A stretch of 58,803 nt of DNA from a virus (taxonomy: Duplodnaviria > Caudoviricetes): IMG/VR virus record IMGVR_UViG_3300003690_000017, positions 1 to 58,803 of that record; one strand, 5' to 3'. The notes below the pieces were generated by a model. The model was not told the DNA's origin. It was given only the letters and a program-made list of their open reading frames with translations, and searched no databases. Each line of letters opens with the position of its first letter. Position 1 is the first letter of the stretch. The position numbers and the translations under genes were made by a program. Positions 5,857 through 35,649 of this stretch are shown one piece after another.

Positions 5857-6541
5857 GGGCCGCCCAAGGGATTTTCTTCAAAAGCTATCCAATAATCCCA
5901 AGCGCCTTACCGTCCTCGTCGCGCGGTCCATGGGGGCATCGTGGCGGGAGGCGGGCGAGGCGGCTGGGATTACCGAAAGTTCGGCGCGAAAGTATGAGGA
6001 TGCCGAATGGCACTGGGCCATTGCGCAGATTCAAGACAAGCTCATGGAGGGGGCCAATGCCGTCCTCGTCCAAGGGGCGCGAGCAGGCGTCAAGAAGGCG
6101 TGGCGCATCGCCCTCGGCTACGACCGCGCAAGCGCACCGCAGGTGTCCATGCTCAAGGACCTGCTGGAGCGGATTGGCGTGGGAACACGGAGGCACGAAG
6201 AGGCCACGAAGCACCTCCATGTCCACGGGCACGGCACGCTCGATGAAATCACGCAGGCATTCAACCCGTTCAGGGATGCGGTAGAAAATGGGGACATCCT
6301 CTCCCTCGAAGCGCTCCGCAAAGTCGAACTCCCAGTCAAGCATGAGCCTCGCGTCGATTCAGACGATGAAGGTGGAGGCGGCGATGGCGCTGGCGAGGAA
6401 GCGGTTCGCAGCGTTCTGCGAGACGACGCTAGAGACAGAGGACGGGCAGCCCATGAGGCCCGACAGGCATCACCGGGTCTGGACGGACAAACTTCAGGAG
6501 GCGGTGGAGCGGAAGGAAGCGGGGGTCCCGGGGCAGTCTAG
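5768..6541 (+). CDS. terS: Putative terminase small subunit
   Basis: HTH-like GASWREAGEAAGITESSARKY, helical core, directly upstream of TerL; start uncertain. Confidence 0.55.
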   Translation: MRPKAYTASSAPLGAFRVVPKSPVASARAKGRPRDFLQKLSNNPKRLTVLVARSMGASWREAGEAAGITESSARKYEDAEWHWAIAQIQDKLMEGANAVLVQGARAGVKKAWRIALGYDRASAPQVSMLKDLLERIGVGTRRHEEATKHLHVHGHGTLDEITQAFNPFRDAVENGDILSLEALRKVELPVKHEPRVDSDDEGGGGDGAGEEAVRSVLRDDARDRGRAAHEARQASPGLDGQTSGGGGAEGSGGPGAV

Positions 6542-8775: not shown

Positions 8776-10845
8776 TTGGCATCCTCACCCGACACATGGG
8801 AAGAAACTGAAGCTGTAATCAACAGCCTCAGATCGTTCTACGCGCCGCAGGTGGCGCAGATGAACGTGGCGATGAGCCTCTACAACCTAGAGATTACGTT
8901 CGCCACCAGCCCGGACATTGACCAGCTAATACCCCCGACTGCCTCCGATATTGTGCGCGATGTTCAGGACCGCATAGCGGGCAACTATCCGATCATCCGC
9001 TGTATCCCCAGAGGGGAGCGGACGCAGGACCGGGAGCAGGCGGAGATTCTCGCCCAGTTCCTCGACATCTACATGCAGCGAGTTCCGCTCAACCCGGCGG
9101 AGCTTCGCATGGACTACGGGATCAAGCAGCTTCTCTCTGACATGGTGTTCGATGGCCTCGTGCGCGGGCGCTGGTGCCTGAAGGTCATCTTCAACCCCAA
9201 CGGCTGGCCGGAGGAGCCGGTGCTGCCAGAGCGCCCCGAGGCACTCGCGAGGGCGCTGGACGCCGGGGCAGACGTGAACGAGTGGATTGATACGCAGGCT
9301 GGCTATCTGGTCGATCGCTCCGATTACGACGAGAAGCACGCGAAGTGGGAGAAGGACACCGAGGGGGTCCTGCCGGTCCTGATTCAGCCGCGCGACCCCC
9401 GCTTCGTGATGCCAGCGCTGGACGGCACCTTCGTCATCGAGCAGTACGACACGACCGCCGACCAGATCATGGAGAATTGGCCGGACCTGAAGCTGCCCAT
9501 CGGCGAGAAGGGCGACACGCGCTACAAGAGCGCGCAGGACCGGGTGACATGGACTGAGGTTTGGGACAAGAAGCACAAGAAGTTCTACGCCGACCAAGAG
9601 GTCGCCCTCCCGAAGACCGAGCACCACCTTGGCTTCATCCCCTACGTGATCGACGGGCCGTTCAGGACTCCGCTCCGGCATTCCGGCTCGCGAGAATCTC
9701 AGGCGTTCGCATATGAGACTGTCTACAAAGGGATCGAATCCATGCTCAAGGCCGAGGCGGCCTTCACGACGTTGGCCGGTGTCATCACGCAGTACGAGGC
9801 GTTCGGTGAGCGGGCAGCCTTCGTGGAGTCACCCGAGGGCGTGGACATCAACTCCGGCCCGGACGCCCTGTCCATGTTCAGCGACAAGGACCGCTACGAG
9901 GTCCATCGCGGGACCGGCGTGCCGCCGCAACTGCTGGAAATGCTCAAGATGATAAAGGATCGGATCGGCGACGCCACGGGCACGTCGCTGCTGGGCGGGG
10001 GCGACGAGTCCGGGTACTCGCGGGCCATCCGGGCGCAGATCGCGAAACTCAAGGATCGGCGCTTGGAGCATGCGATGGAGCGCTCACTCGAACGCTCCTG
10101 CACCTTCGTCCTGAGGATCATCGAGAACGTCGTGAAGGGGCCGGTCTACCTCACCGGCTCCAACGAGGAAACCGATGTCACCCTGAAGGTCGGGCCAGCC
10201 GAAATCGGGGGGCATTCCTATCTAATTGACGTGACGCTGAATGCCGTGCTGCCAATTGATGAGGCCGCCCGCTTCAGCCTCGGCCAAGCCAAATACGATG
10301 CCGGGATCATCAGTGCTTACACGCTGGCTACCGAATACGGCGGCATCCGCAGGGTAGAGCACGAGCGCAAGATGCGGTTCCAAGAGGATGTCATCAACAG
10401 CGACATCATCAAGGCGTTCATCGAAAACGAGGTCGTGAAGGACCTCGGCCTCCCGGGCAGCCCGGAGATCCTCGACATCTACCAGCAGCTTGCTGACATG
10501 AAGCAGGGGCAGATAGCCCAGCAGATGGACCAGATGAAGCAGCAGTTGGCGGGTGCGCAGCAGCAACCCCAGCAAGGGCAGCAGGGCCAGCCCACCCCGC
10601 AACAGCCGCGTAACCCGTTCCCGGCCAGCCCGGGCGAGCAGCAGCAGCGCATCAACCAGTCTCAGGCTCCGACGCCGCCGTCTCCGCGCGGGGCACCGGC
10701 CATGCAACCGGCGCAGGGCCAGAAGCAACAGCGGACCCCGAAGCGAAACAGGCGGAACCGCAGACGCAGGCGACAGCGCTCTGGTACTGCCGCCGCTGCA
10801 CGCAGCCGTCCCGTATACAGCCCGCCTCCGGGCGCACCTTCATAA
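8776..10845 (+). CDS. Portal protein (podovirus type) with Q/P/R-rich C-terminal tail
   Basis: 689 aa after TerL; DPRFV and HHLGFIPYV motifs, helical C-terminal half. Confidence 0.8.
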   Translation: MASSPDTWEETEAVINSLRSFYAPQVAQMNVAMSLYNLEITFATSPDIDQLIPPTASDIVRDVQDRIAGNYPIIRCIPRGERTQDREQAEILAQFLDIYMQRVPLNPAELRMDYGIKQLLSDMVFDGLVRGRWCLKVIFNPNGWPEEPVLPERPEALARALDAGADVNEWIDTQAGYLVDRSDYDEKHAKWEKDTEGVLPVLIQPRDPRFVMPALDGTFVIEQYDTTADQIMENWPDLKLPIGEKGDTRYKSAQDRVTWTEVWDKKHKKFYADQEVALPKTEHHLGFIPYVIDGPFRTPLRHSGSRESQAFAYETVYKGIESMLKAEAAFTTLAGVITQYEAFGERAAFVESPEGVDINSGPDALSMFSDKDRYEVHRGTGVPPQLLEMLKMIKDRIGDATGTSLLGGGDESGYSRAIRAQIAKLKDRRLEHAMERSLERSCTFVLRIIENVVKGPVYLTGSNEETDVTLKVGPAEIGGHSYLIDVTLNAVLPIDEAARFSLGQAKYDAGIISAYTLATEYGGIRRVEHERKMRFQEDVINSDIIKAFIENEVVKDLGLPGSPEILDIYQQLADMKQGQIAQQMDQMKQQLAGAQQQPQQGQQGQPTPQQPRNPFPASPGEQQQRINQSQAPTPPSPRGAPAMQPAQGQKQQRTPKRNRRNRRRRRQRSGTAAAARSRPVYSPPPGAPS

Positions 10846-10857
10846 GGGCAGGGTAGA

Positions 10858-13800
10858 ATGGCTCGCAAGAAGACCCAGCAGAAGATTGTCGCCGCCATTG
10901 AGGGTGCCCGTGAGGGCGCTGCCGGAGAGATCGGCAGGATCGTGGCGGATATGACCGGCAAGAAAACCAAGGGGCGTAGTGGAATGGGCGGTGGGTATAC
11001 CCAGCCCATCCCCGGTGAAAAGCTGCCACCAGAGCCGCCGCCGTTCAAGAGGCGCAAGAGGCCCCCTAGAGCATTCCCCCCGAGGCCGTGGCCGCGCTCA
11101 GTCCAGCCCGCCGCCCCACCGACTGGCATCGACCCGCAGGGCGCACCGGAATACCGCCCCTACCAGCCGGGGTATCACCCGATGCCGGGCGATCCCTCCA
11201 GCGACGTGCGGGCTCCTGCGTGGGAGTCGCCCAACGTAAGGGGCTTTGGCAGGAGCCGGGCCATTACGCCGGGATACGAGGATAATCAGACTCAGAGGTA
11301 TGCCCACCCGATGCCGGGCGATCCCTCCAGCGACGCGAGGCATAGGCGTAGCGGCCTTCAGGGCCTCCGGGATGCTTGGCCGGGTGGCCTCGGCTTGGAG
11401 AGGGGCCGGGATGCCGACTGGCCGTTTAGCGGCGGTGGTGGTGGACGCGGCAACGCTGGGGACCACTACTCGTCCTTTGGCCCCAAGCCGGTGCCCTCGT
11501 TCTTCCCGGGCGTGGGTGGGCACGGCGGTGAGGCGGAGGACATCTTTCGCCAGCGCCAAGAGCAGATGGGCACGTCTGCGGCTGATATTCAGTGGATCAT
11601 CGACCACCCCGCAGACTTCCCCGATGCCGTCTCAGGCGCAGCTGCAAAGGAAAAGGATCGTCCGGGTGGCGCGTTCTACTCCTCAGCCACGGTAGACAGT
11701 CCAGACCAAGCGCCTGTTACCGAGGCAGCGTCCACCCCGGACGATACACCGCCCCCTGCCGACGAGGAAGCCGACGAGGACGCTTCGGCCTCGCTGCCCG
11801 ATTTTGTCAGCACCGACACGGGCATCCAGTTAGACGCGATGCCCGTTTCAGCAGCAGGCACCGACGTTCCCGACGACGCCTACAGCCTCGTAAGAGGCGA
11901 GCGGGACCCGGGCAGCGGCCAAGAGTACGAGGCGTGGCAAAACCCAACTGGCGACTGGTTCCGCCGCTGGATGGGCCAAGACGCACCACCTCCGCCAGCG
12001 GCAGCAGTAGACCCGAACGTGCCCGCCGAAGGCGAGTACGACTTCGATGTGACCGGCGCTGGGTATACGGACGCCGAGTTACTCGCTGCACAGGCGGGCA
12101 AACACCTGTCAGGGGAATCCCGGTCGTCAACCGGGGCCAGTGAAACCAACTACCGAGTCGTCAAGAGCGACGGCACTTTCGGTGTCAACGCTGGCTGGCT
12201 CCGCGCTCGTCAAAGGGAGGCTGCCGAGTTGGGCATCGACACTAGCGGCTGGAACTGGGTCGATATGCACCCGCAGTCGATTCAGGACATGATTAACAAC
12301 AGGCGCGGGCATTTACCCGGCGGGGCGTACGGGACTCAGACCCCGGTAGACCTCCAAGGCCCGGCACCGGCACCCCCATCACCGCCCCGTCCGGTAGCAG
12401 TAGGTTCGCCACCACCGGATGGCAATGAGCAGTCCCTCCTAGCCATCAGGACCATGCTTGAGCAACTCATGGCGAATCAGCAGCCTGAGCCGACGCAGCC
12501 TTGGAACCCGGCCACCGGCCCAGCGCAGGGGTACGACCCCGGCTTCGCTCAGTCGGGATTACCGAAGAACTACGCGACGATGTGGAACACACCGATGGCA
12601 GGCTCCACGATGGCTCCGGGGTCGCCGTGGCGCACGGATACGAGCCTTCAGGTGCTCCCGCAGGTGCAGTCGGAAAAGGCGGGCTCATACTATGCGCATC
12701 CCCGCGCCGTCTCCCCCGGTCAGTGGACATCCCCGGTAGTTGGTGGGCATCCCCAGATGACGCCCGGGAGGCTCACTCAATATCTCGATCAGTTCCGACC
12801 GTCAGATACGTACGAGCCTACGTTGGGGTCCTACTACAGCCAGTTCGCAAATCCCGACTCGCAGGCGGCGGGCGGCGCAGGCGGCCACATGCAGGGCACA
12901 GGCGGCTACATGCAGGGCGCAGGCGGCTACATGCAGGGCGCGGGCGAGTCGAGGTTCGCACCGCCCGGGTACATGGGCGGTGGAATGGGCGGCGATGGCG
13001 AAGAGAACGGCTATGGCGGCGGGAAAGGGCAGGGGCCGTTCGACGCTCAGGGCGGCATCGACGCCTTCGTGACCGCGCTAGGGGAGATCATCTCAAACAT
13101 CGGAGACGAGGAAGTGCAGCGGGCGGCATGGGCGATGCTCGCGCAGTCTGCCAGCGGCGACTTTGCCAGCCTCATAACGGGCATGTACGGACTCACTGGG
13201 CAACTGTATGCGGTGGACCGGCAGGCGGCCCTAGCGATGGAAGGACTCACCCAGCAAGCAGGGCAATTTGCAGCCGGGCTGGGACTCGACATCTTCGGTC
13301 AGCAGCAGGCCGGAGCGATCAGCGGCTACCAGTCGGAAACCGCGCGCATGGGCGTGGCCGGGCAGCTACAGGCGATCGCGGCGGAGCTTGGCATGGGCGC
13401 GACGATTGAGGCAGCCATAGCGGATCAGGACTACGACATAGCGGCCCGCCAGATTCAGGCAGCCATCGAGCAAATCTACTCGCAGGAGCGCCTCGGGCTG
13501 ACACAGATCGACTCCAGTACCCGAATCGCGATGACAAACGCGTACAACACGGCGAGCCAGATTGAATCGAGCGAGCGTGTCAGCATGGCAAACGTGGGTA
13601 TGCAGGGAACCCTCGGCCTCGAAGGAATCGCGCAGAGCGAGCGCGGCAACCGCACCGGATTCATCGGTCAGGCGATGAACTCCCCCGGCGCGATGATCCC
13701 GGTGCTCAACGCCCTGCGGAACCCGGAAACCATGGGTGACTTCGACCCGTGGGCGATGGCTCGCACTACTCCTTGGGGGAACATGTATCAGGGCATCCCG

Positions 13801-14481
13801 GGCATGGTGCAGGCAGGCGAACAGGCGGGCGTGGGCCAGCCTAGCCCGGCCGCCATGAACATGCAGAGCAACATGGGGCAGCCTTCACCGGACCCCGATT
13901 TCGCCCAAGCCTTCAGCCAAGCGCGGAATCGCGAGCTTGCACAAGGGCAGCCTTCGCAGGTGGAGCCAGCCGGGACTGCCATGAACATGCAGAGCTTCTA
14001 CGACCCGAACAATATGTTTCGTCAGCTTGGGCAGCCTTCGCAGGTGGAGCCACCCCGGACTGCCCCAGTCCAGCCCGCCGCCCCACCGACTGGCATCGAC
14101 CCGCAGGGCGACCCGAACTATCGCCCCTACCAGACGAACATGCAGAGCAACATGCAGAACATACAGAGTGACGCCAGCGCGGCCTCCCTGCCGTCTTTCA
14201 ATAGTATGTCGCTTGCCGCCACACCCGCAGGGTTCGCCGCGTCAGTGCCGGGCCAGTCGCAACTGAGCCAGACAGGCACCGGCACCAACTTCCCGACCAC
14301 GCAGGAGCCGGTCAACGTGATGCCGAATATCGCGGCCCCGGACTGGATGAATATGCTGGAGCCGGAGCGGAATATCTATGCGCGGGCGCTAGGCAGCTTC
14401 TACCCCGATTTCGAGGAGGAGCAGAACGCCATCGTGGGCACGGGGGTGGGGCCGGACCGCGCGATCTTCGCAGGGGTCTAA
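10858..14481 (+). CDS. Large low-complexity internal virion / ejection (pilot) protein 1
   Basis: 1207 aa, P/G/Q-rich with A/Q-rich helical segment; follows the portal. Confidence 0.6.
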   Translation: MARKKTQQKIVAAIEGAREGAAGEIGRIVADMTGKKTKGRSGMGGGYTQPIPGEKLPPEPPPFKRRKRPPRAFPPRPWPRSVQPAAPPTGIDPQGAPEYRPYQPGYHPMPGDPSSDVRAPAWESPNVRGFGRSRAITPGYEDNQTQRYAHPMPGDPSSDARHRRSGLQGLRDAWPGGLGLERGRDADWPFSGGGGGRGNAGDHYSSFGPKPVPSFFPGVGGHGGEAEDIFRQRQEQMGTSAADIQWIIDHPADFPDAVSGAAAKEKDRPGGAFYSSATVDSPDQAPVTEAASTPDDTPPPADEEADEDASASLPDFVSTDTGIQLDAMPVSAAGTDVPDDAYSLVRGERDPGSGQEYEAWQNPTGDWFRRWMGQDAPPPPAAAVDPNVPAEGEYDFDVTGAGYTDAELLAAQAGKHLSGESRSSTGASETNYRVVKSDGTFGVNAGWLRARQREAAELGIDTSGWNWVDMHPQSIQDMINNRRGHLPGGAYGTQTPVDLQGPAPAPPSPPRPVAVGSPPPDGNEQSLLAIRTMLEQLMANQQPEPTQPWNPATGPAQGYDPGFAQSGLPKNYATMWNTPMAGSTMAPGSPWRTDTSLQVLPQVQSEKAGSYYAHPRAVSPGQWTSPVVGGHPQMTPGRLTQYLDQFRPSDTYEPTLGSYYSQFANPDSQAAGGAGGHMQGTGGYMQGAGGYMQGAGESRFAPPGYMGGGMGGDGEENGYGGGKGQGPFDAQGGIDAFVTALGEIISNIGDEEVQRAAWAMLAQSASGDFASLITGMYGLTGQLYAVDRQAALAMEGLTQQAGQFAAGLGLDIFGQQQAGAISGYQSETARMGVAGQLQAIAAELGMGATIEAAIADQDYDIAARQIQAAIEQIYSQERLGLTQIDSSTRIAMTNAYNTASQIESSERVSMANVGMQGTLGLEGIAQSERGNRTGFIGQAMNSPGAMIPVLNALRNPETMGDFDPWAMARTTPWGNMYQGIPGMVQAGEQAGVGQPSPAAMNMQSNMGQPSPDPDFAQAFSQARNRELAQGQPSQVEPAGTAMNMQSFYDPNNMFRQLGQPSQVEPPRTAPVQPAAPPTGIDPQGDPNYRPYQTNMQSNMQNIQSDASAASLPSFNSMSLAATPAGFAASVPGQSQLSQTGTGTNFPTTQEPVNVMPNIAAPDWMNMLEPERNIYARALGSFYPDFEEEQNAIVGTGVGPDRAIFAGV
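11099..14110 (+). repeat. 45-nt exact dispersed repeat (11099-11143 = 14066-14110), partly repeated at 14766-14799 and 16240-16263
   Basis: CAGTCCAGCCCGCCGCCCCACCGACTGGCATCGACCCGCAGGGCG read at both positions. Confidence 0.9.
12877..12939 (+). repeat. Three 21-nt tandem repeats (xGG[H/Y]MQG)
   Basis: GCAGGCGGCCACATGCAGGGC, ACAGGCGGCTACATGCAGGGC, GCAGGCGGCTACATGCAGGGC. Confidence 0.9.
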
Positions 14482-17400
14482 ATGTTTGACCCGTTAGCGG
14501 CCCTCAGCCAGCCGATGCAGCGACGGCCACGCCGTCCACCCTCAGGCGTCGTAAACCCGCAGGTTCAGATGCCGGAGGTCGCGCCGCCGACCTTGCCGCC
14601 ACGCCAGACGTTGCCTTCGGCGCAGATGCAGTTCCAGCCGCCCGAGGTGCAGATGCCGCCAGTCGGAGTGCCGTCGCAAGAGGAGGATCCGTTCGCGACC
14701 TTCCTTGGCCTCTTCACGGATCGGGAGCCGAAAGAACTCGTTCCCATCCCCCTGCCCCCTGAGAAGACTGGCATCGACCCGCAGGGCGACCCGAATTACC
14801 GCGGGCTGGTCCCGCCGGTTCCAGAGGCCTCTGCTGTCTCGGCCCCTGCTGTCTCAGTGGCTCCCGGGGGCGTAGCGCCCGAGGCAGCGCTGGGGCAAGC
14901 CAATGGGATGGTGGAGGCCATCGACTTCACTGGCGATCCTGAGCAAATCTTCTCGCAAATGCAGGCGGCGGTGGACTTTGCTACCGCAAATGGGATTGTG
15001 GTCTTAGGGGGGATTCGGTACTACTACGACGCCAACGGCGAGCGCGTGGCAGTCCCCATCATCAAGTTCGGCCAGCAGGGCGAGTGGATACAGCTGGACA
15101 ACGCAGAAGACCTCAGTGGCCTCACACCTGCGGGCAGCCTGCGGGCGGACGACGACCCGGGCAGCACTTTCATACTTAGCGGGATCGGCGACTTCTTCGA
15201 CGACCTCGGCGACTTTAGGAGTGTGCGGCCCGGGTCGTGGCTATATAACATCAAGTACAACAGTGGATTGGGCGATTTAGTCGGGAAAATCGGCGACTTC
15301 TTCGACATGGGAGGGGGATTCCTCAACCCCTTCGATGAGCGCCCACCTGAGGTCCCCATCCCGGTGGGGGCACCCGGCATAGGCACCCCCCCGGGGTACT
15401 CGGCGGCCCCCACTGACGGCAGCATGGTCCCGCCAGTCCCGAAGCCGCTCAACCCCACCGATCAGGGCGGGCAGGTGTTCTACCCTGTCGTCGGGAGCGA
15501 CTGGGCCGGAAGCCAGCCGATGGGCGAAGACGCGGGGAGCGGCTACCGCTATGGCGATGCCCCGCACGGTGAGGCCAGCGACTACAGGCACAACGCGGTG
15601 GACATCCAAGGTGCCGAGGGATCAGGGATCGCCTCCACTGTCAGCGGCGAAGTCATCACCATCGACTTCGATCCGGTGTCTTACGGCCTGCACATCAGGA
15701 TTCGGGACGCGCAGGGACGCGTTCACCTCTACGCACACCTCCAGTCGATCAGCCCCGAATTACAGGTGGGCGCACGGGTTCAGGGCGGCCAGAGCATTGC
15801 GGCTATGGGCGGCGTCAGGGTCGATCAGGGTGGCACTTATCAGCTTCACAGTTCGATCACCCTCGGGAGTGACGAGCGCCTCGGACCCGGAAGATCGACC
15901 GGCTCTCACCTCCATTACGAAGTTCAGGACGGTCAGGGCAATCCGATCGACCCGGGGACCTTCTTGCCGGGGGCCTCGCCGAGTTCTGGTGCCAGCACGG
16001 CCGTGTCAGCATCAAACCTTGACTCACCGCCTCAGGCTCAAATGGCAGCCAAGTCACAGGGTTCACAAGGAAATCTTACCAATTTTCTTGGTGCCGACTT
16101 TGCTTACACGGGTCCCGCGCTGACGCAGCCGGGGCAGCGTCGGGACTTGCCTCAGGCTCAGAACATCCCGAGCTTCTTCCAGAACGATCAGGGCTTCTTC
16201 GGCGGCCAAGGCGGCGGGAAAGGGCAGGGGCCATGGATAGACCCGCAGGGCGACCCGAATTACAGGCCCCGGCCTCAGCAGGAAACCGGAGCCCAGCTTC
16301 TTCGATTTCCGCCAGAAGCACGGCCACCGGCCCAGCCGGGACAGGACGGCTTCGGAAGCTGGCTGAACGAGCAGCGACAACGACCGGGCATGGAATCGCT
16401 ACTTGGGCCAGAAGCGTTCCCATTCCGAACTCAGGACAGGATTAACAACTTCCAGCCGACGCCTTGGGATACGGCGGCTCGGTACATCACCGCAGCGAAG
16501 CGCGGCCTTGGCTATGTGGTCGGTGGCGATATGGTGGGGGACCTCTACACCGGGTACTTGGAGCACGTCCGCCGGGACCCAGAGCGGGCGCAGGCCGAGC
16601 GGGACCGAGGAGCAAACCCGCCCCCTCAAGGCTGGATCGGCGAGCATATCGACGCCCCCATTGGCGAGTTCGCGCGCAATGCTTACGAGGCGATCACGGA
16701 GACGCCGCTGTCAGTGTTCCCGTACCGGGGAATGGCGGGCAGAACATCGGATACCCCGGCAGGCCCGACGCTTTCCGACATCGGCGAGCGCATGGAATGG
16801 CGCGACCCGGAAGGCAACGTGGCAATCGGGCCGCTGGACATTGCGTTCGCGGCGCTTGGCGCAAAACCGGTACTGCGGGCAGGCGCTTACCAAGCCGGTC
16901 GAGCGGTAGGGTGGGCGGACCAAGTAGCCGCGAGGGCCGCGCAGGCCGCCGGGGCACGCCGCGCCGCGCAGGCGCGGGCAGCGGCCCCGGACGCAATCCC
17001 TGCCACTCGGGGCGCGGCGCGACTCCCTGAACCCTACATTGAGGGAGAGGTCACAGTATTAGGCGAGCAACGCCTCCTCCCGCGCCCAGCCTTTGCGGAA
17101 CCCCTGCGGCCGCCTCCACCCCGAACCCGGCAAATACCGGGCAGGCAGGCGGCTGCGGAACTCCAGCGCCCGCCGCCCTCGGGACAGGCCATCACCCCGG
17201 AGCCACCACCTTCAGCGATACCGCCCACGATACCGTCCGCGTTCCCGCTCATGCCTGTGCCCCCACGCGGGCAAATCGGGCTCGGAAAAGCGATGCTCGG
17301 CCCGGCGCACTACGCAGCGGCGGGGTCTACTGACGGTGTGCCAGTTCTCCACGCGGGGCCGGGCGAGAGCTTCGGGGTCGTACGGGACGGCATCTTGAAC

Positions 17401-19662
17401 GCCAAGCAGTTCCACTACCCGGGAATGGGGGCTGGGACGGCCATCATCCTCCTCCCTGACGGCACTGTCGTGGGCGCAGCGGAGCACGCTGCCGCCGCAC
17501 AGTGGATCCTCCAGCACGACCCCAGCTTGGGCTCGGTAAGAAACATTGGCACCTCCTTGCCGGGGCCTTGGGGGGCTACCTCGACAAGCAGCCCGGTGCA
17601 GTACGTCCAGCAGCGCGGCGGCATGCGTTTGCGCAAATGGGGCGACCAGTACGTCGTCGATGTCGCCCCCGAGCTAGGGATGACGACCCCGCAGGAAGCG
17701 GGGGATTTTGTGAGCGAGCAGCTTGCCAAAGCCATCGCTTTTTCAATCCAAAGCGCGGGGGGGATAGAAGCGGTGCTCGCGGAGAGTGGGGCGGCGGCAA
17801 CGATTAGCTGGGAGGTGAGCTACGGGCAGAACGCGTACGGCGTGGACGCGTATGAGTACCCGCAGGGTTATGACCTGAACATGGGGGAAGTGGCGCGCAC
17901 CGGCATCAACAAGCCGCAGTGGCACATACGGGTGACGCCCGAAATGATCGCCAAGCACCTGCCGGAAGTACGCGGCGGATTGGTGAGGGGGCGGGCAGAC
18001 CTGCGACCTGAGGGCGTAGCTTCCGGGCGGTCGGTCAACCTCGATATGCCACCCGGGTCCCTGTATGCGGCCATGCTGGAGCCCCGGCATGGCTTCCCGC
18101 CGATTCCGTGGCATCGGGCCGTCGCGAATCAACCGCCGGGCCATCGGCTCAGGGTGGAGCGCATGCGCGACGCCTTGGACGCCTTCATGGATGAGGTCAG
18201 GACCAGCCCCAACTTTGATCTCAAGGCGCTCAACTACTTGCGCGATCTTCGTAACGGCGTGCAAATGGGCGCGGTCGGCAGGGACCTGATGGGCTACCAG
18301 CAGATCGAAGATGGGGTTGTCAGGGCGCTGTTCGAGGGCACGACTGGCGGGAGCCGGACAGAGGGCAGGTTTGGTCAGCATGGCTATGGCTTAGATTTGC
18401 GAAATATGACCGAGAAGCTCCGGGTCGCCTACTGGGCGATGGAGAAGGTAAATTCGGTAGAGTCGTTCCAGTCCGCGTGGTCGCACATACAGCGGGAAGC
18501 GGGCATCAATTCCAAGCTCGCCAGACAGAACTTCAGCCCGATCGACGCCCTTGGGCGCGAGGCCGAGTTGCTGTTCTCAATCCTCGACCTGTTCGTGAAG
18601 GACGGCCTCAAGCTCGGAGAGATTATCAACCTCATGGGCGGCGGCTCCTACGAGGCCGAGTTCGCCCTGCCGATAGACCGCGCCATCCGGCAGCAGAGCA
18701 TCACGCTCGACCCCGACACGAAGCCCATGCAGCAGCTTCTCCTGCGGCAGCAGCCCGGCTACAACTACATGCGGCCCGGGCAGGAGAACTTGGACGCCAT
18801 TCCGAACACGGAACCCCTGACGCCTCGCGACGTAATGCCACAGGAGATTGAGTACCCGCCGCAGGGCGACTTCGACCAGTACCAGCTTGACACCCGGAAC
18901 CCGATGCCGCTGGACGAGCGGCGGTGGTCGGATGTGGATGCAGGTGAATCGCTCATGGACCCGCGAAGCGCACGCGTAACCGAGGATTACACCCGGTTGG
19001 TCCTGAAGTACCGCTTCCTGACAACGAAGGACAGCGGTCCGCGCCCGCGTATGTCGGCGCGGAGCTACAGTCAGAGCGGCTTGGTCGCCCGGCATCGGGC
19101 GGGCATGAGCAAGGCCGAGAGTGCGGCACGCGACGAGACGTTGCGGCAGGCAATGGACCACATCAAGCTGGCGCGCGAATATTGGGCGCAGGATGCCATA
19201 GACGCCGCGCTCTCAGCGCATGCGGACGCAGAGCGGCTCTTGCGCAAGCTGCCTGAATTTGTAGAAATTGAGCGCCTGCTCAGTGAAGCCGATGGCCTTG
19301 CTGAACTACTTTCCGAGGCGTCGATCGACCCGAACTTTGACGAGATCATAGGGATCGACGGGGCGGCAGACCTCCTCGAACGGGAGACGGACATCTTTGA
19401 TGAGTTCTTGCTGACAACCGAGCACGCAATCTTTGATCGCGGAGTCCAGTCGGACAATCCCGGCGTCCACGCGGCCCTGCCTGCCGACCTCGCGAAGCTG
19501 CGGCGGTTCCACGGCGTGCTGGAGCGGATGTACGATCGACTGATGGGGAGGCCGCCGGAGGAGTTCATGCCGGGAGGCGGTGGCGCAGGCGGTATCATGT
19601 TGCCACCCCAAGCCGCCGCCCTCAGCGCCGCCCCAGTCGGTGCGTCAGGGATGTGGTCGTAA
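14482..19662 (+). CDS. Internal virion / ejection protein 2 with an M23 peptidase domain
   Basis: 1726 aa; M23 motifs HNAVD, HLYAHL, STGSHLHYEV at about 15589-15925. Confidence 0.7.
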   Translation: MFDPLAALSQPMQRRPRRPPSGVVNPQVQMPEVAPPTLPPRQTLPSAQMQFQPPEVQMPPVGVPSQEEDPFATFLGLFTDREPKELVPIPLPPEKTGIDPQGDPNYRGLVPPVPEASAVSAPAVSVAPGGVAPEAALGQANGMVEAIDFTGDPEQIFSQMQAAVDFATANGIVVLGGIRYYYDANGERVAVPIIKFGQQGEWIQLDNAEDLSGLTPAGSLRADDDPGSTFILSGIGDFFDDLGDFRSVRPGSWLYNIKYNSGLGDLVGKIGDFFDMGGGFLNPFDERPPEVPIPVGAPGIGTPPGYSAAPTDGSMVPPVPKPLNPTDQGGQVFYPVVGSDWAGSQPMGEDAGSGYRYGDAPHGEASDYRHNAVDIQGAEGSGIASTVSGEVITIDFDPVSYGLHIRIRDAQGRVHLYAHLQSISPELQVGARVQGGQSIAAMGGVRVDQGGTYQLHSSITLGSDERLGPGRSTGSHLHYEVQDGQGNPIDPGTFLPGASPSSGASTAVSASNLDSPPQAQMAAKSQGSQGNLTNFLGADFAYTGPALTQPGQRRDLPQAQNIPSFFQNDQGFFGGQGGGKGQGPWIDPQGDPNYRPRPQQETGAQLLRFPPEARPPAQPGQDGFGSWLNEQRQRPGMESLLGPEAFPFRTQDRINNFQPTPWDTAARYITAAKRGLGYVVGGDMVGDLYTGYLEHVRRDPERAQAERDRGANPPPQGWIGEHIDAPIGEFARNAYEAITETPLSVFPYRGMAGRTSDTPAGPTLSDIGERMEWRDPEGNVAIGPLDIAFAALGAKPVLRAGAYQAGRAVGWADQVAARAAQAAGARRAAQARAAAPDAIPATRGAARLPEPYIEGEVTVLGEQRLLPRPAFAEPLRPPPPRTRQIPGRQAAAELQRPPPSGQAITPEPPPSAIPPTIPSAFPLMPVPPRGQIGLGKAMLGPAHYAAAGSTDGVPVLHAGPGESFGVVRDGILNAKQFHYPGMGAGTAIILLPDGTVVGAAEHAAAAQWILQHDPSLGSVRNIGTSLPGPWGATSTSSPVQYVQQRGGMRLRKWGDQYVVDVAPELGMTTPQEAGDFVSEQLAKAIAFSIQSAGGIEAVLAESGAAATISWEVSYGQNAYGVDAYEYPQGYDLNMGEVARTGINKPQWHIRVTPEMIAKHLPEVRGGLVRGRADLRPEGVASGRSVNLDMPPGSLYAAMLEPRHGFPPIPWHRAVANQPPGHRLRVERMRDALDAFMDEVRTSPNFDLKALNYLRDLRNGVQMGAVGRDLMGYQQIEDGVVRALFEGTTGGSRTEGRFGQHGYGLDLRNMTEKLRVAYWAMEKVNSVESFQSAWSHIQREAGINSKLARQNFSPIDALGREAELLFSILDLFVKDGLKLGEIINLMGGGSYEAEFALPIDRAIRQQSITLDPDTKPMQQLLLRQQPGYNYMRPGQENLDAIPNTEPLTPRDVMPQEIEYPPQGDFDQYQLDTRNPMPLDERRWSDVDAGESLMDPRSARVTEDYTRLVLKYRFLTTKDSGPRPRMSARSYSQSGLVARHRAGMSKAESAARDETLRQAMDHIKLAREYWAQDAIDAALSAHADAERLLRKLPEFVEIERLLSEADGLAELLSEASIDPNFDEIIGIDGAADLLERETDIFDEFLLTTEHAIFDRGVQSDNPGVHAALPADLAKLRRFHGVLERMYDRLMGRPPEEFMPGGGGAGGIMLPPQAAALSAAPVGASGMWS

Positions 19663-22600
19663 ATGGCGCTGAACTTCGGGCCTATACAGCGACGGCAACG
19701 CCCACAGCGCCCGCCGCCGATGGTACAGATACCCACGCCTGCGCTACCCCCGGTTCCGCAGCGCAGCGCCTCCGTGCCCCCGGTTCCGCAGCCGCCCCAG
19801 CTTCCCCCGGTCACGATTCCGCAGATGCCCGCGCGCCGGGGCGAAGCGGACGACCTCGGCCTACTACTCGCGATGATGGGGGAGGAGCGGCAGTCGCGAG
19901 ATCAATTGGCGGCGGGCTATGAGCAGTCGGTGCGCGAAGAAGAGTTCTCTCCTCTTGCTGACAAGTGGACGAAGCGGCTAGGCCACACAGCCACTCACGA
20001 ACAGGCCCAGATTCTCGAACTGCTTGGACTTCCTGACGACGCATCGCAGGACGTTCTGGACGATGCCGTTCGCGCCGTCAACCTCATGAAGGATCGCGGC
20101 CAGTTGTCCTCAGAAGTGTTCTTCTGGATGAAAGAGCAGCACCCGGAGATTGAACTCAGCGCGGAACTGGGCCTGCCGATCGAGCCGGATGCGCCACCGC
20201 CCTCAGTCAGCGAGCAGGCGGCGCAGATACGCGAAGAAGGCGGCGATCGCTTCTTTGGTCCGACCTTTCAGGCGGAGGCGTTTGCGGAACGGGCCAAGGG
20301 GACGGACAGCCTCGGATCGCTGATAGCTCAGACGGGCTTGGCCGGGCTCCGCAAGGGGTTCGCGGAAGGAGTAGCCAAGTTCGATGAAGCGAGCAGAGGG
20401 AGTAGTTACGACGAAAGAGTCCAAGAGCAGATTATGGAGGAGATGCAGAAGCTGACTGGGCGCAAAGACGGCGAAGGGCCTTTCGACGAGTTCGGGAGGC
20501 TTGCCGGGTACGGCCCCTCAGAGGAAGGTGAGGCGTCAGTCGGAACGCGCATATACGCCGATCTTCAGGAGGCTTCGGGGCGGCCATGGACAATTGATCC
20601 GCGTGAATATGGCGGGGATTTCGGGCTCGCTCGCGGGTATCTCGCAAACAGCGCGATTAAGTGGGCCGACTTCTTCGAGGGGTTCGGGTCAGGAATGGGG
20701 CAGGACCGACCGGAGTTGTTCCAAGAGCAGATTGCAGAGTCCTCTGCCGTGCTGACACCACCTCCACCTCCGCTGTCTGGCTCTGCGCTGGACGATGAGC
20801 GGCATGCCGAAACCCGGGCGCTGATCGAAATGAGCACGCCTGAAGGGAACGACCCCTCGACTCTCTCGGAAGTCGGCTTAGGCCAGAACGTCGGCGGCAT
20901 TGTCGGCACGGTCTTCGACAACATAATGCGCCCCTTCCACGCGTCGATGGCCCGCGAGCGCAACATCGAACTGGCGGCCCTCGGCCTAGAACCGCTGAAT
21001 CCCAACGGGGCGGCATGGGATGGCTTCACGCTCGAACGTCGCGACACCTACATGGACATCCTGCTCGATCATGGCGTTCAGGACCCGGTGATCCTCTTCA
21101 TGGCCTCGCTGCCCGTCGAGATCGCCATGGACCCCGTAACGGCGCTTGGCGCGACAGGTCTTGCGAGGGCGGTATCCAAGGGCGTCTCGCACAGCATCTT
21201 CGGGGCCACCAGCGCGGCGATTCGGCACGCCCCCCCGCGGATTGCTGGGGCTATGGACACGGCCCTTGCGATCGTGCGCGTGGCGAAGAACCCGACCGGC
21301 GCGAATCTGTCGTTCTACAGGCTCGGTCAGGAGCACCTGCTCAGAACATGGATAGAGCGCTACGGCAGGCGGATGGGGCAAATCACCGGCCAGATAGACA
21401 TGCAGGACGCGAGACGGATCGTCAAGGAACTCAACGAAAGCATGACCCCCGAGCAGTTGGCCGCCATGACCGCTGAACTCGATGTCGGCACGGAGGTCTG
21501 GCTCGCGGCGAATCCAGATTTGGCCGACCCGATCATGGCGAAGTGGACGAATCGCAAGCAGGTGGCCGTGAGGGCCGGTGCCGAGCGTCGCGCAGGGCTC
21601 AACGTCGAGGACCGTATGCCCGATCCCACGATGCCGCTGGGACCGGGGGCAGAGGTGCCGCTGGGGCCGCCTAAGGCGACGGTTGGGCCGCAATACTCCC
21701 CGGCCGAGCGGGCGCTGCAAGAGAATCCCGCGTGGACCCCTGAGGCGACGGCGAAGTTCCGCGAGCGAACTGCCGGTGTACGGGATCAGGCTCCATTCGG
21801 GCCGCCCGCCCCGAAGGCGGAGCCGGTGGTGACACGCGCGCCGCGACCTCCCGCAACCGCCAGCCTTGTCCGCACCGCCACCGGAACGACCGGCACCGAG
21901 ATATTCCGGGGCGATGTTCCGACCGGCATCAACCGATTCAACCGGCGCATGGCGCGCACGCAGGCCGTCAACCGCGAATTGCTGACCTCGGAGTCCATGG
22001 CCGGGCAGACCGTTCCGCTCGGCACGGGCCAGACTTTGAGGCAGGCTGCGCCGACCCCTGCGCGACGAGCGCCCCCCGCCAATGTTCTCTCTCCAGACGA
22101 AGCTGCGGCTGCGGGGGCAGCGAGGAACAGGGGCTTCAGGGCGGCCCCTGAGCGCAGGCCGGTGGGGCCTGACGGCTTGGAGTGGGACGGATCGGGACTC
22201 GCGCCGCCGAGGGCCGCCACTGCCGCAAGGGTGGCGGGGGAGGTAGCGGAGGAAGTGATTGATCCCGCGACTGCGCGGCTGGGGCAAATCACCGGAAAGG
22301 CTGGGCAGCCGGTCGTTCCCTTCCAGATAGACATGCAAGAATGGATAGGGCGCTACGGCAGGCGGGTTGCCACTCCACCGAGGGTTGCCACTCCACCGAA
22401 GCCAAGCGGCCCGTCTCTCCCGCCCACGCGGGCGCTGGAGCATGTCCGCGAAGCCGTACAGGCGTCAGGCACCGAGCCGCTCCGGCACGCGATTGGCGGT
22501 CGCTCTGAGGCCAACATCGTGGACTACGTGGCGCACTACCGGATCGGGAAGCTGCCTGAATCGGAAATGCGGGGCATCGGCGGCTTCTTCCGGCGGCTAT

Positions 22601-25600
22601 TCGGACTGGACGAGAAATTCATTTCCCCCGAAGACCTCCGTGGCACCGGCATTCGTGACATCACCGGGCGACCCTCTCACATGCAGCAGCGGAAGATCCA
22701 AGAGCCGATTGCTGGTACGGCCCAACTAACTCCTGCTGACATCGCCATCGAGGTGGACCTTGCCCAGCGGCGCAAAGCCTACAACCTGCTGTGGGCGGTC
22801 ACCGATGTAATCCAGCAGAACGGATTCGCCGTCCACATTGACGACATCAATACCATGAGGCGGATACTCGGCCGCGAGGTGGCAGGCTTGACCGACGAGC
22901 AGGCCGCCAAGCGACTGCTGGTGGAGAGCGGCACCCTGACGGCAAAGCAGGCTGAGGGCGTCACAATGGTCCTCCTAGACGACGTAGGGGCCAACAAGGG
23001 CAAGACCCTCGTCAGGAATCTGGCGAATCATCGCCCGGGAACGCTTTGGGGGCAGACCCGCGAAGTCTTGTCGAGGAAGGCCCCCAAGGACGCCAAGTTC
23101 GCGACAGCCGCTCCCGGCACGGCCACGATGGTCGCCTTGCCAACCCCGTACGCAAAGTTCATGACGCAGTTGCTCGACGCCAGCGACTTTGGGGGGTTCG
23201 TCAGGCTCTACGACGCGCACCTGAACTTCTGGAAGCGGGCCAGCACTGTTTGGGCTCCGCTGTTCCACACACGCAACGGCGCGTCCAACCTCTACCTGAA
23301 CTGGCTCGGCGGCGTCGCCAACCCGAAGTGGTACTACGAGGCCATGCAGATACAGAAGGGCGCGCGCGACGGGCGGATGTGGGGAGTGGAAGGCGTCGAA
23401 CGCATCAGCACCGCCGACCTCATAAGGAGGATGGAGATTCAGCAGGTCACCCGCACCGGCATCGTCGGCGAGATGCAGTACCACATGGGCACCAAGAACG
23501 CGACGGTCGCCGAGAGGCGGATCAAGGAATGGGTGAAGGTGGGCGGGAATTCCGCGCTGTTCGGCACGGAGGCATATCGCGCGGGGATCAGCGGGCTGCG
23601 CGGCTGGGATCGCGTCAAGTACATATACGACTCCCTCCCCGGTGCGCCGACCGGCTCTCGCTCATGGGGAAAAATGGGCATGACGCTCGGTGGAGCGATC
23701 GAGGACAACGCGAAGATTGCTCACGTCCTCGCGAAGCTGTCCGGGGGCATGACGGTCAATCAAGCCTTCGATTCGTCCAAGATGTGGCTCTACAACTACG
23801 CCGCGCTGACACCGATAGAGCGGAAGGTCTTTCGCCGGGTCATCCCCTTCTACGCGTGGCAGCGGCACAATGTTCCGCGCATGCTTGACGCCATGTTCAC
23901 CCAGCCGCACAAGGTTCAGATGACGCAGTTCTTCATACGTGACGCCGCTGGCGCGATCAGTTCGGCGGCGGGCATGGATCAGCGCGAACTCGCTGCTGCG
24001 ATGGCCCTGATGCCTGAGTTCTTCCAGCGCATCGGCGGCTGGGTGTTCGGCAGGGACGAAGCCGGGAACGTCAAGATTCTGCGAGGACAGTTCGGCCTTC
24101 CGACTGAGGACATCGGAATGGCGGCCCCGTTTGTGGACCCCGCAGAATGGCTGGACAACTTCCTGAGCCAACTGGCACCCTACGCGAGCGTGCTGTCCGC
24201 GGGGATCATGGAGCACTCCCTGTTCACAGGAGAGTCCACAAGCGAGCAGTCCAGCGGCAACTTCTTCACCCGCACCGACGCGAATACCTTCAAGATGTAT
24301 AAGGCGTCTGACGGGGCGCTGCGATACGCCGAACCCTTCCTCGGCCCACTCGGCGGCGCGGTGAAGGACTTCCGCGAGGAGTTCCTCGGTGTCCGCGAGC
24401 AGCAATACGTGGACGCGCGAGGCAACACCCGCACCAGCTACCTCGTGAGGAATCCTTGGTTCTACGCATTCGCGACCTCGCTCGTGCAGATGACGGGCGC
24501 AGGCCGGGTCGGTTCTTCAGTACGGCAGTTATCCGACCCCCGCAAGAGCGTGGCCGACCGGATTATAGGCCAGTTCCTCCCGCTGAAGATCACCAGCGTC
24601 GATGTGACCCGCAAGGCTCTGAATTACTACGCGGGTGACGCGACCGTGTGGGACCACCAACTCGGCCATCTTTCCAACCAACTGGAAATCCAGAAACTCG
24701 GCGGGCCGAACAGCATGTCCATCGAAAAGTTCCTCGACACTGTTTACGGCCCGGCTGTCCGCAACGCCTACGCCTTCAGCCAAGCGCAGGGTCGCGGGCT
24801 TACACAAGACCCCGATTTCGCCCAACGCGAGGCGTTCCGGCGCATGGTTCTGCCGCCCGTCCAGCTTGCCCTTGAGGCTTACCGCGACGGCAATCCCGAC
24901 TGGTTGCGCCACAAGGACTGGGCACCGGGAGGCCCGCCGCTGCACGAGAACGGCCTGAAGAACTGGGATGGCTTCTTCGAGTGGCGCGACGAGTTCCTTG
25001 AGGACCCCTACGCGTGGATGAGCGAGCGCAGGCACGCGGACGGGACGCCGTATGTCAGCTTCACTGGCCCCGACGCCCGGCAGCAGATCGAGGGCTTCAA
25101 CGAGCAGGTGGCGTTCCAGATTAAGGGTGGCGAAGGCAGCCTCGCGCGAAGGGCGGACAAACTCGGGTACGATGAGGTCGCGCGATTCGAGCGCTGGCGG
25201 CAGTACGCGTACAAGAGTTACGAGACATATCTGGACATCGACCGTTGGAGCAGGCCGGAACTCAACGCGATGGCCGACGAGGCTCGCGAGTACGAGGTAA
25301 CCTACCAAGAGTTGAACCGCACCTCGATGATTCAGGCGAAGATGTACCGCGAGCGCGGCATCCTCTTCGAGCGCGCACCCGGGGGCGCGTGGGTTGAGAC
25401 GGGCGCAGTGAATCCGCGAATACCGGCGATCCTCCAAGGTGCTGGCAGTTGGGACCGGAAATATGCGAATCCGCAGAGGCGCATCTATCGAGCGCGACAC
25501 CCTGAACTGACGATCTTCGGCCTCGGCGCTCGCGTGTCCGGCTTCTTCGATCCGTCGATCATTTACACGACGGACCCGCCCGAGGAACAGGGCGTGGTGC

Positions 25601-25662
25601 CGGAACTGCCACCGGCAGACTACAGCCGCTCGTCCATGGAGGGTGTCTTTGCCGGGGGCTAG
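19663..25662 (+). CDS. Large internal virion / ejection protein 3
   Basis: 1999 aa; FHTRN and YNYAALTPIERKVFRRVIPFYAW segments typical of large podophage DNA-transfer proteins. Confidence 0.7.
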   Translation: MALNFGPIQRRQRPQRPPPMVQIPTPALPPVPQRSASVPPVPQPPQLPPVTIPQMPARRGEADDLGLLLAMMGEERQSRDQLAAGYEQSVREEEFSPLADKWTKRLGHTATHEQAQILELLGLPDDASQDVLDDAVRAVNLMKDRGQLSSEVFFWMKEQHPEIELSAELGLPIEPDAPPPSVSEQAAQIREEGGDRFFGPTFQAEAFAERAKGTDSLGSLIAQTGLAGLRKGFAEGVAKFDEASRGSSYDERVQEQIMEEMQKLTGRKDGEGPFDEFGRLAGYGPSEEGEASVGTRIYADLQEASGRPWTIDPREYGGDFGLARGYLANSAIKWADFFEGFGSGMGQDRPELFQEQIAESSAVLTPPPPPLSGSALDDERHAETRALIEMSTPEGNDPSTLSEVGLGQNVGGIVGTVFDNIMRPFHASMARERNIELAALGLEPLNPNGAAWDGFTLERRDTYMDILLDHGVQDPVILFMASLPVEIAMDPVTALGATGLARAVSKGVSHSIFGATSAAIRHAPPRIAGAMDTALAIVRVAKNPTGANLSFYRLGQEHLLRTWIERYGRRMGQITGQIDMQDARRIVKELNESMTPEQLAAMTAELDVGTEVWLAANPDLADPIMAKWTNRKQVAVRAGAERRAGLNVEDRMPDPTMPLGPGAEVPLGPPKATVGPQYSPAERALQENPAWTPEATAKFRERTAGVRDQAPFGPPAPKAEPVVTRAPRPPATASLVRTATGTTGTEIFRGDVPTGINRFNRRMARTQAVNRELLTSESMAGQTVPLGTGQTLRQAAPTPARRAPPANVLSPDEAAAAGAARNRGFRAAPERRPVGPDGLEWDGSGLAPPRAATAARVAGEVAEEVIDPATARLGQITGKAGQPVVPFQIDMQEWIGRYGRRVATPPRVATPPKPSGPSLPPTRALEHVREAVQASGTEPLRHAIGGRSEANIVDYVAHYRIGKLPESEMRGIGGFFRRLFGLDEKFISPEDLRGTGIRDITGRPSHMQQRKIQEPIAGTAQLTPADIAIEVDLAQRRKAYNLLWAVTDVIQQNGFAVHIDDINTMRRILGREVAGLTDEQAAKRLLVESGTLTAKQAEGVTMVLLDDVGANKGKTLVRNLANHRPGTLWGQTREVLSRKAPKDAKFATAAPGTATMVALPTPYAKFMTQLLDASDFGGFVRLYDAHLNFWKRASTVWAPLFHTRNGASNLYLNWLGGVANPKWYYEAMQIQKGARDGRMWGVEGVERISTADLIRRMEIQQVTRTGIVGEMQYHMGTKNATVAERRIKEWVKVGGNSALFGTEAYRAGISGLRGWDRVKYIYDSLPGAPTGSRSWGKMGMTLGGAIEDNAKIAHVLAKLSGGMTVNQAFDSSKMWLYNYAALTPIERKVFRRVIPFYAWQRHNVPRMLDAMFTQPHKVQMTQFFIRDAAGAISSAAGMDQRELAAAMALMPEFFQRIGGWVFGRDEAGNVKILRGQFGLPTEDIGMAAPFVDPAEWLDNFLSQLAPYASVLSAGIMEHSLFTGESTSEQSSGNFFTRTDANTFKMYKASDGALRYAEPFLGPLGGAVKDFREEFLGVREQQYVDARGNTRTSYLVRNPWFYAFATSLVQMTGAGRVGSSVRQLSDPRKSVADRIIGQFLPLKITSVDVTRKALNYYAGDATVWDHQLGHLSNQLEIQKLGGPNSMSIEKFLDTVYGPAVRNAYAFSQAQGRGLTQDPDFAQREAFRRMVLPPVQLALEAYRDGNPDWLRHKDWAPGGPPLHENGLKNWDGFFEWRDEFLEDPYAWMSERRHADGTPYVSFTGPDARQQIEGFNEQVAFQIKGGEGSLARRADKLGYDEVARFERWRQYAYKSYETYLDIDRWSRPELNAMADEAREYEVTYQELNRTSMIQAKMYRERGILFERAPGGAWVETGAVNPRIPAILQGAGSWDRKYANPQRRIYRARHPELTIFGLGARVSGFFDPSIIYTTDPPEEQGVVPELPPADYSRSSMEGVFAGG
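22364..22399 (+). repeat. 18-nt tandem duplication (RVATPP x2)
   Basis: GGGTTGCCACTCCACCGA twice. Confidence 0.9.
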
Positions 25663-34576: not shown

Positions 34577-34582
34577 GTCGCT

Positions 34583-34588
34583 AGTATA
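34583..34588 (-). promoter_or_regulatory. -10 element for a leaderless epimerase mRNA
   Basis: TATACT exactly 6 nt before the ATG, no Shine-Dalgarno sequence. Confidence 0.55.
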
Positions 34589-34609
34589 GGCAAATGACGC
34601 CGCCGACGT

Positions 34610-35618: not shown

Positions 35619-35649
35619 TTACCACGGGTCGAACATGGAGGCATATCGA

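Follow-up and report, generated by a model that had tools for sequence, protein, structure and literature searches.

This study examined three giant genes, here called g1, g2, and g3, in the metagenome-derived viral contig IMGVR_UViG_3300003690_000017, together with the short exact repeats that they carry. The window, meaning the whole stretch of DNA that was analyzed, is identical with the complete IMG/VR virus record and comprises 58,803 bases with ~62% G+C. The three genes form a 14.8-kb block (10858–25662) within a head module whose order is large terminase, portal, g1, g2, g3, an open reading frame (ORF) of 278 amino acids (aa), and major capsid protein. They are contiguous and have one common reading frame, and both of their junctions (14479–14484 and 19660–19665) read TAAATG, which suggests termination-reinitiation coupling; stop read-through would fuse all three products. 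The G+C fraction at third codon positions (GC3) was 0.76–0.78 in all three genes.

Distant homologues of g1 aligned only at residues 229–501 and 761–1202, and a homologous-protein search with g1 and g2 returned the window's own proteins only. The core of g3 (residues 1179–1506) was homologous to three proteins, P0005–P0007 (E 1e-13 to 4e-18), of which P0007 has an ART-PolyVal domain; an Atlas search with g3 gave a lead to LPD38, a "polyvalent protein". An AlphaFold2 (AF2) model of the g3 core, built on a five-sequence alignment, had a mean predicted local distance difference test score (pLDDT) of 36.1 and was too poor for a fold search. Because their position and content match those of polyvalent or MuF-type proteins, the products of g1–g3 are probably packaged or ejected head-module proteins. 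An earlier reading of the window, made without database searches and here called the sequence-only reading, had named them ejection proteins, a label that is reasonable but inferred. Separately, g2 (14512–14673) and g3 (19681–19840) carry at their starts Arg/Pro-rich leaders that resemble each other (PMQRRPRRPP... and PIQRRQRPQRPP...; E 5.5e-5), and a similar leader (QRPPPSGQAITPEPPP) was observed inside g2 near residue 895 (17164–17300); g2 may have arisen by fusion of two modules, each with such a leader at its start.

The sequence-only reading had listed nine exact repeats in the three genes and had attributed them to recent copying of short patches. We recovered all nine, with the lengths given as maximal lengths and with every offset divisible by 3 (45 nt at 11099/14066; 31 nt at 11176/11305; 30 nt at 14088/14766; 24 nt at 14776/16240; 23 nt at 13015/16210; 24 nt at 13945/14029; 18 nt at 13852/13978; 18 nt at 15184/15289; and 14 nt at 20420/20720). 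A full k-mer scan of the block revealed 23 maximal exact direct pairs of at least 14 nt, including 14 pairs of at least 18 nt and 7 of at least 23 nt; the longest repeat was 45 nt. Twenty-two of the 23 pairs were in frame, which is still an excess because 63% of the chance repeats in codon-shuffled sequences (2338/3722) were also in frame. Codon-order shuffles (n = 200) yielded a mean of 1.6 pairs and a longest repeat of 17 nt, and synonymous-codon shuffles that preserved the proteins (n = 500) averaged 4.3 pairs, with no repeat longer than 36 nt. None of the 500 synonymous shuffles reached the observed number of pairs, longest repeat, count of pairs of at least 18 nt or at least 23 nt, or summed length; the repeat density thus lay well above the codon-shuffled null. 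The other 44 kb of the genome contained 22 pairs, the longest of 20 nt, corresponding to 0.023 pairs per Mb squared versus 0.21 in the block (~9-fold). Inverted pairs in the block numbered approximately 4 (8 seeds, with every pair counted twice) and were not enriched.

The peptides encoded by the repeats, TGIDPQG(D/A)P(N/E)Y, HPMPGDPSSD, and GGGKGQGP, were as previously described and, in a six-frame translation of the window, were confined to the three genes. The four occurrences of the pattern DPQG.P.Y in the six frames all fell in g1 and g2; the same peptide was kept in different sequence contexts. These results revealed that the repeats are real, specific to the block, and beyond what peptide conservation and codon bias explain.

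Head-to-tail tandem units were present at 12874–12946 (21 nt, 3.5 copies), 22364–22399 (18 nt, 2 copies), and 14826–14855 (15 nt, 2 copies). Most repeat families were dispersed rather than tandem, with copies 105 nt to 10.9 kb apart and common to the three genes. The segment 22275–22365 aligned to a tandem dimer of the 21349–21408 unit with a score of 75, compared with 45 for a single unit; by our own count, 61 of 64 aligned nucleotides were identical, with an insert of 27 nt. Copying of patches out of tandem arrays, or several template switches, would be expected to give such permuted copies. At 16210–16263, patches matching two different sites had been described as stitched together. The 23-nt and 24-nt matches at this site are real, but they need not reflect the joining of two fresh patches: GGGKGQGP is followed by FDAQGG in g1 versus WIDPQGD in g2, and in our own reading 10 of 13 nucleotides match past a one-codon indel. 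Because the g1 sequence past GGGKGQGP also resembles that of g2, the site may be one older composite unit instead. The features are compiled in Table 1.

Table 1. Coordinates of the three giant genes, their repeat sites, and other genes discussed in the text (D numbers denote repeat families; TRF, Tandem Repeats Finder; TM, template modeling score).
Feature	Position	Strand	Remarks
g1, putative virion-internal or ejected protein, 1207 aa	10858..14481	+	ORF; no Pfam or PHROG family
g2, 1726 aa	14482..19662	+	M23 peptidase domain at residues 369-491 (Pfam PF01551, E 2.7e-14)
g3, possibly polyvalent type, 1999 aa	19663..25662	+	No Pfam or PHROG family
TGIDPQGAPEY motif, copy 1, g1 N-terminal linker	11099..11169	+	45 nt exact with 14066; 23 nt exact with 14766
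Two HPMPGDPSSD copies	11176-11211, 11305-11340 (span 11176..11340)	+	31 nt exact; 94% over 36 nt
21-nt tandem array (GGYMQGA), 3.5 copies	12874..12946	+	TRF score 125, highest in window
GGGKGQGP site in g1	13008..13037	+	93% over 30 nt with 16203
Hypervariable cassette zone, g1 C-terminal linker	13840..14154	+	Units GQPSxVEPxxTA, MNMQS, PDPDFAQAFSQARNRELAQ; families D9, D10, D17
DPDFAQ-AFSQARNRELAQ unit in g1	13881..13945	+	Families D6, D12; 84-86% identical to 24765-24825, in permuted order
TGIDPQGDPNY motif, copy 2, g1 C-terminal linker, lineage-specific	14066..14136	+	92% identical to copy 1 over 71 nt
TGIDPQGDPNY motif, copy 3, g2 N-terminal linker	14744..14814	+	30 nt exact with 14088
Two IGDFFD copies	15184-15201, 15289-15306	+	18 nt exact
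Composite GGGKGQGP + WIDPQGDPNY site in g2, motif copy 4	16203..16269	+	23 nt exact with 13015; 24 nt with 14776
QEQI patch site 1	20420..20433	+	14 nt exact with 20720; missing in relatives
QEQI patch site 2	20720..20733	+	14 nt exact with 20420
60-nt unit WIERYGRRMGQITGQIDMQD in g3	21348..21408	+	Families D13, D16, D20
Circularly permuted copy of 60-nt unit + 18-nt tandem duplication (RVATPP)	22275..22399	+	Tandem-dimer alignment
AFSQAQGRGLTQ-DPDFAQ unit in g3	24765..24825	+	Order permuted relative to g1 unit (AFSQA...-DPDFAQ)
Large terminase subunit	6288-7970		PHROG 38
Portal protein	8776..10845	+	No PHROG or Pfam match; Atlas structure search: SPP1/P22 portal clusters, TM 0.56-0.70
Major capsid protein	26972..27931	+	PHROG 1357, E 8.8e-57; ~31% identical to capsid protein of Bacillus podophage Page
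YqaJ-type exonuclease (candidate helper)	43454..44491	+	Pfam PF09588, E 1.8e-26; PHROG 434
RecT single-strand annealing protein (candidate helper)	44496..45662	+	Pfam PF03837, E 8.4e-40; PHROG 148

Most repeat zones lay outside the conserved blocks of g1 and g3 given above; the C-terminal repeat zone of g1 fell inside the alignment span of the protein P0010, but aligned poorly there. Residues covered by repeats were richer in P, G, Q, S, and N than the others (0.47 vs 0.34). An AF2 model of g1, based on four sequences and of low confidence (mean pLDDT 38.6), was used for the layout of secondary structure alone; it predicted long helices at residues 2–32, ~730–970, and 1160–1195, with short helices and otherwise unstructured sequence between them. 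The g1 repeat zones were almost entirely unstructured in this low-confidence model.

We then compared the block with its relatives. A run index search found block DNA in 20 marine metagenome studies, and Logan contigs were compared from the probable source run (X1) and from three other seawater studies (X2, X3, and X5). A megablast and tblastn search against GenBank phages gave no match to the block or to the g1 core. The independent X1 assembly showed 0–1 differences from the window in the listed pieces, at an even depth of ~50. Its contigs were interrupted at repeats, as is expected of a 31-mer graph, and they tiled the 14066 patch (13845–14095, 14066–14133, 14104–14164, and 14135–17159), the junctions within 13845–14164 being covered with 0 differences. 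One X1 contig of 52,933 nt runs leftwards from 11128 through the window start and re-enters at the window end; it has 44,129 letters outside the block versus 43,998 in the window, or ~131 extra by our own arithmetic. Because this contig links the window end to its start, the phage genome is probably circular or circularly permuted, near-complete, and roughly 59 kb in length; the estimated completeness listed for the record is 65.

The relatives were almost identical to the window in conserved stretches (at least 99%; 11 differences in 3282 nt at 22381–25662 and 8 in 912 nt at 12929–13840). Two proteins provided further comparisons: P0004, which is 98% identical to g3, and P0009, a 509-aa C-terminal portion of the g1 protein of a relative, with almost identical flanks. 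Against this background, the repeat zones differed by whole patches. In X2, X3, and X5, the 73 nt at 14065–14137 were swapped for ATGG, so that the 23-aa PVQPAAPPTGIDPQGDPNYRPYQ(T) patch was gone, as it was in P0009. The same three contig sets differed from the window in whole-unit copy number: the 21-nt array was shorter by 42 nt (two units) in all three, and an extra unit of 84–86 nt was present at 13948–14043 in X3 and X5. X2 carried 42 extra letters at 13840, P0009 had its own tandem VEPPRTAMDMQSNMQ duplication, and the cassette zone at 13840–14154 was also arranged in other ways in the relatives. In X2 and X5, 22286–22380 was swapped for 8 letters, a net difference of 87 nt fewer that agrees with a 29-aa gap in P0004. 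The QEQI patch (12 nt at 20422) was missing in P0004, and the X2, X3, and X5 contigs had 15 gap letters within 19582–22285. The tail of motif copy 3 (14744–14814) was swapped in X5, giving ...DPQGPPEYQ. Relatives' contigs spanned the composite site at 16203–16269 without a joint. Several patches thus differed in presence or absence between the window and its ~99% identical relatives.

Among the 10 window segments that differ from the relatives, 4 have local paralogues, 3 of them with matches beyond random expectation (45 nt, p ~0.003; 14 nt, p ~0.03; and 22 nt, p ~0.03); the fourth has several matches of 15–17 nt. For the letters that replace window sequence in the relatives at 11350/11419 (29 nt) and 14786/14849 (17 nt), the window offered no match longer than 12 and 11 nt, respectively, and hence no local template was found. 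As a separate observation, the C-terminal half of g2 (17138–19582) was only ~85–96% identical in relatives from three studies, compared with at least 99% in the surrounding genes; it contains swapped segments of 62, 167, and 350 letters without local repeats and constitutes an allelic-replacement island.

The direction of change could be read best at 14066. The relatives have at this site a regular unit (...RTA-MD-MQS) resembling the window's upstream unit (...GTA-MN-MQS), whereas the window's downstream unit is split by the patch. The simpler reading of these sequences is that the patch was gained by insertion in the window lineage, because a deletion would need to recreate the letters of the relatives' unit. 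The patch has a mosaic make-up: the opening 45 nt and closing 12 nt are identical to copy 1 (11099), and the 12 nt in the middle (GDPNY) show 6 differences from that copy and look like copies 3 and 4. The source and target flanks of the 14065–14137 insertion have at most 2 nt in common. Junction microhomology was 4 nt (GGGC) at the 66-nt indel 22286–22351 and at most 2 nt at 14065 and 20422. In copy 1, the relatives differ from the window at 11118, 11122, and 11137, three positions within 20 nt at which window copy 1 is identical to window copies 2 and 3; this cluster looks like a short conversion tract.

We consider it probable, though well short of certain, that these results reflect recent in-frame turnover of short patches in the low-complexity linkers of the contiguous, co-translated genes g1–g3 by ordinary processes, followed by filtering. 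Because patches are present or absent among ~99% identical genomes, patch copying or loss is, as far as these comparisons indicate, recent and ongoing. On this view, coding segments of 12 to ~90 nt were duplicated, in tandem or dispersed over 0.1–11 kb and across gene borders, and the linkers behave as indel hotspots in which units are gained, lost, re-ordered, and homogenized among ~99% identical genomes. Tandem units would arise through replication slippage, and dispersed patches through template switching or illegitimate copy-insertion; short-tract gene conversion would act between copies and between co-circulating relatives, and the phage RecT could assist. Events would persist only if they kept the frame and fell in segments tolerant of length change. 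The re-use of a few peptides almost exclusively in one frame suggests some function for the motifs as well, above all for [T/W]-G/I-IDPQG-x-P-x-Y.

Several points weigh against this interpretation, or narrow it. Disorder of the linkers is suggested but not proved by their composition, lack of conservation, and low-confidence model. At 22286–22380, deleting 66 nt between GGGC microhomologies and dropping one 21-nt tandem unit would give exactly the relatives' form, and loss is at least as likely as gain there. QEQI and the 21-nt units can likewise be read in either direction, and some apparent gains may be losses in the relatives. The comparison was based on Logan contigs rather than raw reads, the X1 pieces leave 11129–11176 uncovered, and the 45-nt repeat exceeds 31-mer resolution. 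Polymorphism was gauged over the block only. DNA related to the block was not found in searches of viral contigs (with P0003, P0001, P0010, and alignment A1) or of metagenome contigs (with P0004 and A1), and for this reason events were polarized from contig joints and two proteins only. No local template was detected for 6 of the 10 variable segments (11351–11418, 11812–11951, 14787–14848, 17783–17799, 17974–18146, and 19556–19581); repeat copying therefore accounts for part of the variation in these genes, alongside other sources. Finally, the mechanism was inferred from end products. The earlier proposal of recent patch copying was thus supported in part: synonymous identity and polymorphism point to recent copying or loss of short patches.

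The sequence-only reading had further suggested that the YqaJ/RecT annealing system builds the disordered regions as a diversification route that needs no reverse transcriptase. The genes for the YqaJ exonuclease and RecT are indeed present and adjacent in the phage genome (Pfam and PHROG), 7 of the repeat pairs are at or above the minimal pairing segment of 23–27 bp quoted for Red-beta in De Paepe et al. (2014, PMC3945230), and the substitution clusters at 11118–11137 and 12381–12420 resemble short conversion tracts. Nevertheless, a specific YqaJ/RecT engine that copies patches between genes is unlikely. Annealing cannot have placed the best-polarized insertion, at 14065–14137, because its flanking homology is at most 2 nt. 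Annealing of direct repeats should also delete or duplicate the intervening kilobases, and no such joint was found among the contigs listed, in which rare variants are dropped. No observation ties the events to RecT, and the outcome is the re-use of a few peptides, with no local template for most of the variable segments. RecT could at most explain homogenization between existing copies and short-tract exchange with relatives. The idea of a diversification route was likewise not supported, since neither an asymmetry between donors and acceptors nor targeted mutagenesis was apparent. A related and still less likely explanation is that the patches are functional mini-cassettes, serving as docking or processing motifs of three injected proteins and reshuffled by RecT-assisted ectopic conversion and tandem-array copying. 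If this were true, the phage would have a means, free of reverse transcriptase, to tune or vary its injected proteins under host pressure, and the circularly permuted copies would be a sign that transient tandem or circular intermediates had served as templates.

A reading without recent copying, in which old paralogous motifs are kept alike by peptide selection and strong codon bias, would be consistent with the high GC3 of g1–g3, the conservation of the peptides across copies, and the nearly uniform frame of the repeats. We regard it as very improbable, because the synonymous-shuffle null fails to match the observed repeats and because old paralogues do not fit patches that are present or absent between ~99% identical genomes. 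We have equally little belief in an assembly artifact, that is, chimeric joins at low-complexity GC-rich k-mers of a metagenome assembly. The contig is metagenome-derived, the Logan contigs of the probable source run break at repeats, and the 45-nt repeat is longer than k = 31; however, the independent assembly of the probable source run tiles 13845–17159 and the other listed pieces with almost no differences, and swapped exits from direct repeats would split a circular genome into two circles, which the single 52,933-nt circle-closing contig does not fit. Moreover, all patches preserve the frame of ORFs 1207–1999 codons long, and relatives from other studies have shared patches, such as 16203–16253. 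Dedicated templated hypermutation of the type performed by diversity-generating retroelements (DGRs), or another cassette mechanism that writes patches, could account for short templated patches in virion protein genes, but we give it practically no credence. None of the 51 ORFs matched a reverse transcriptase family in Pfam at E 0.001 or better, and none appeared in PHROG scans of 28 ORFs. The 42 mismatches over 13 repeat pairs were not adenine-specific (11 had A in the first copy and 14 in the second), no Rfam family was found in the window, and no single donor with many acceptors was observed.

Slipped-strand mispairing changes the number of tandem repeats in low-complexity regions, for example in phage tape-measure and fiber proteins. 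The block resembles such variable-number tandem repeats in its 21-nt array (12874–12946), 18-nt duplication (22364–22399), and 84-nt unit (13945–14029), which are head-to-tail and in frame and vary in copy number among relatives; it differs in that its families are mostly dispersed and common to three genes, with two circularly permuted. Template switching by fork stalling and template switching (FoSTeS) or microhomology-mediated break-induced replication (MMBIR) also generates short ectopic templated inserts, some stitched or re-ordered, with junction homology of 0–4 nt, as in the block, whereas the products in the block all keep the frame and draw again on motif-coding segments, an indication of strong selection once the event has occurred. 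To our knowledge, there has been no demonstration of an MMBIR-type mechanism in phage genes. The block shares with DGRs the templated change of phage structural or host-interaction genes, but neither a reverse transcriptase nor an adenine-specific pattern or single template repeat was found here.

The relaxed recombination by Rad52-like recombinases discussed in De Paepe et al. (PMC3945230) is similar in several respects: YqaJ and RecT are encoded, identity stretches are 23–45 nt long, and clusters resembling conversion are present. According to that paper, segments of ~100 bp inside genes are often exchanged, Rad52-like recombinases tolerate divergence, and phage genomes are usually without repeated sequences. 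The exchanges it describes occur between phage or prophage genomes at homologous positions, whereas those in the block are ectopic within one genome, with one insertion lacking flanking homology. Compared with the polyvalent and MuF-type packaged effectors covered in Iyer et al. (2017, PMC5512222), the block similarly encodes giant multi-part head-module proteins by the portal, with a peptidase in g2 and an ART-PolyVal domain in a homologue of the g3 core; g1 and g3 differ in having no Pfam domain of their own, and packaging and injection are here presumed. A literature search on disordered phage ejection proteins with repeats, or on low-complexity internal virion proteins, found no earlier description.

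Other regions of the genome yielded observations of their own. A glycosyltransferase cluster with a B12-binding radical SAM enzyme and an NAD-dependent sugar epimerase/dehydratase was found at 29687–36861. The 253-aa ORF at 40958–41719 had a GC3 of 0.42, compared with 0.7–0.8 in its neighbors, and matched the glycine-rich ALK_LTK_GRD domain (PF12810, E 1.5e-12). Its product may be a tail or receptor-binding module of recent acquisition. The ORF at 42054–43124 encodes a second M23 peptidase, separate from that of g2 and fused to an SLT transglycosylase domain, and its product is likely an endolysin or tail lysin. Near the record end, at 58610–58696, is a 39-nt tandem repeat (2.2 copies, TRF score 112) in which a 9-nt TTTCGATCC repeat is embedded; this may be an origin or regulatory region. 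The window encodes a primase/helicase-like protein (45695–47815) and YqaJ/RecT, but a DNA polymerase family was not detected in it, and it contained no tRNA genes.

Length and motif variation driven by repeats and short-tract mosaicism of phages are already known, and their combination in giant head-module proteins, accompanied by population evidence, is a new example; the results give no support to a dedicated diversification system or a new class of diversity generator. The findings provide evidence from natural populations that the giant head-module protein linkers of a widespread marine phage turn over by in-frame patch copying, within the time taken by the remainder of these genes to change by well under 1%. 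The block is a natural substrate for studying how phage recombinases handle direct repeats of 20–45 nt, and DPQG.P.Y, HPMPGDPSSD, and GGGKGQGP are concrete motifs with which a role in packaging or ejection can be tested.

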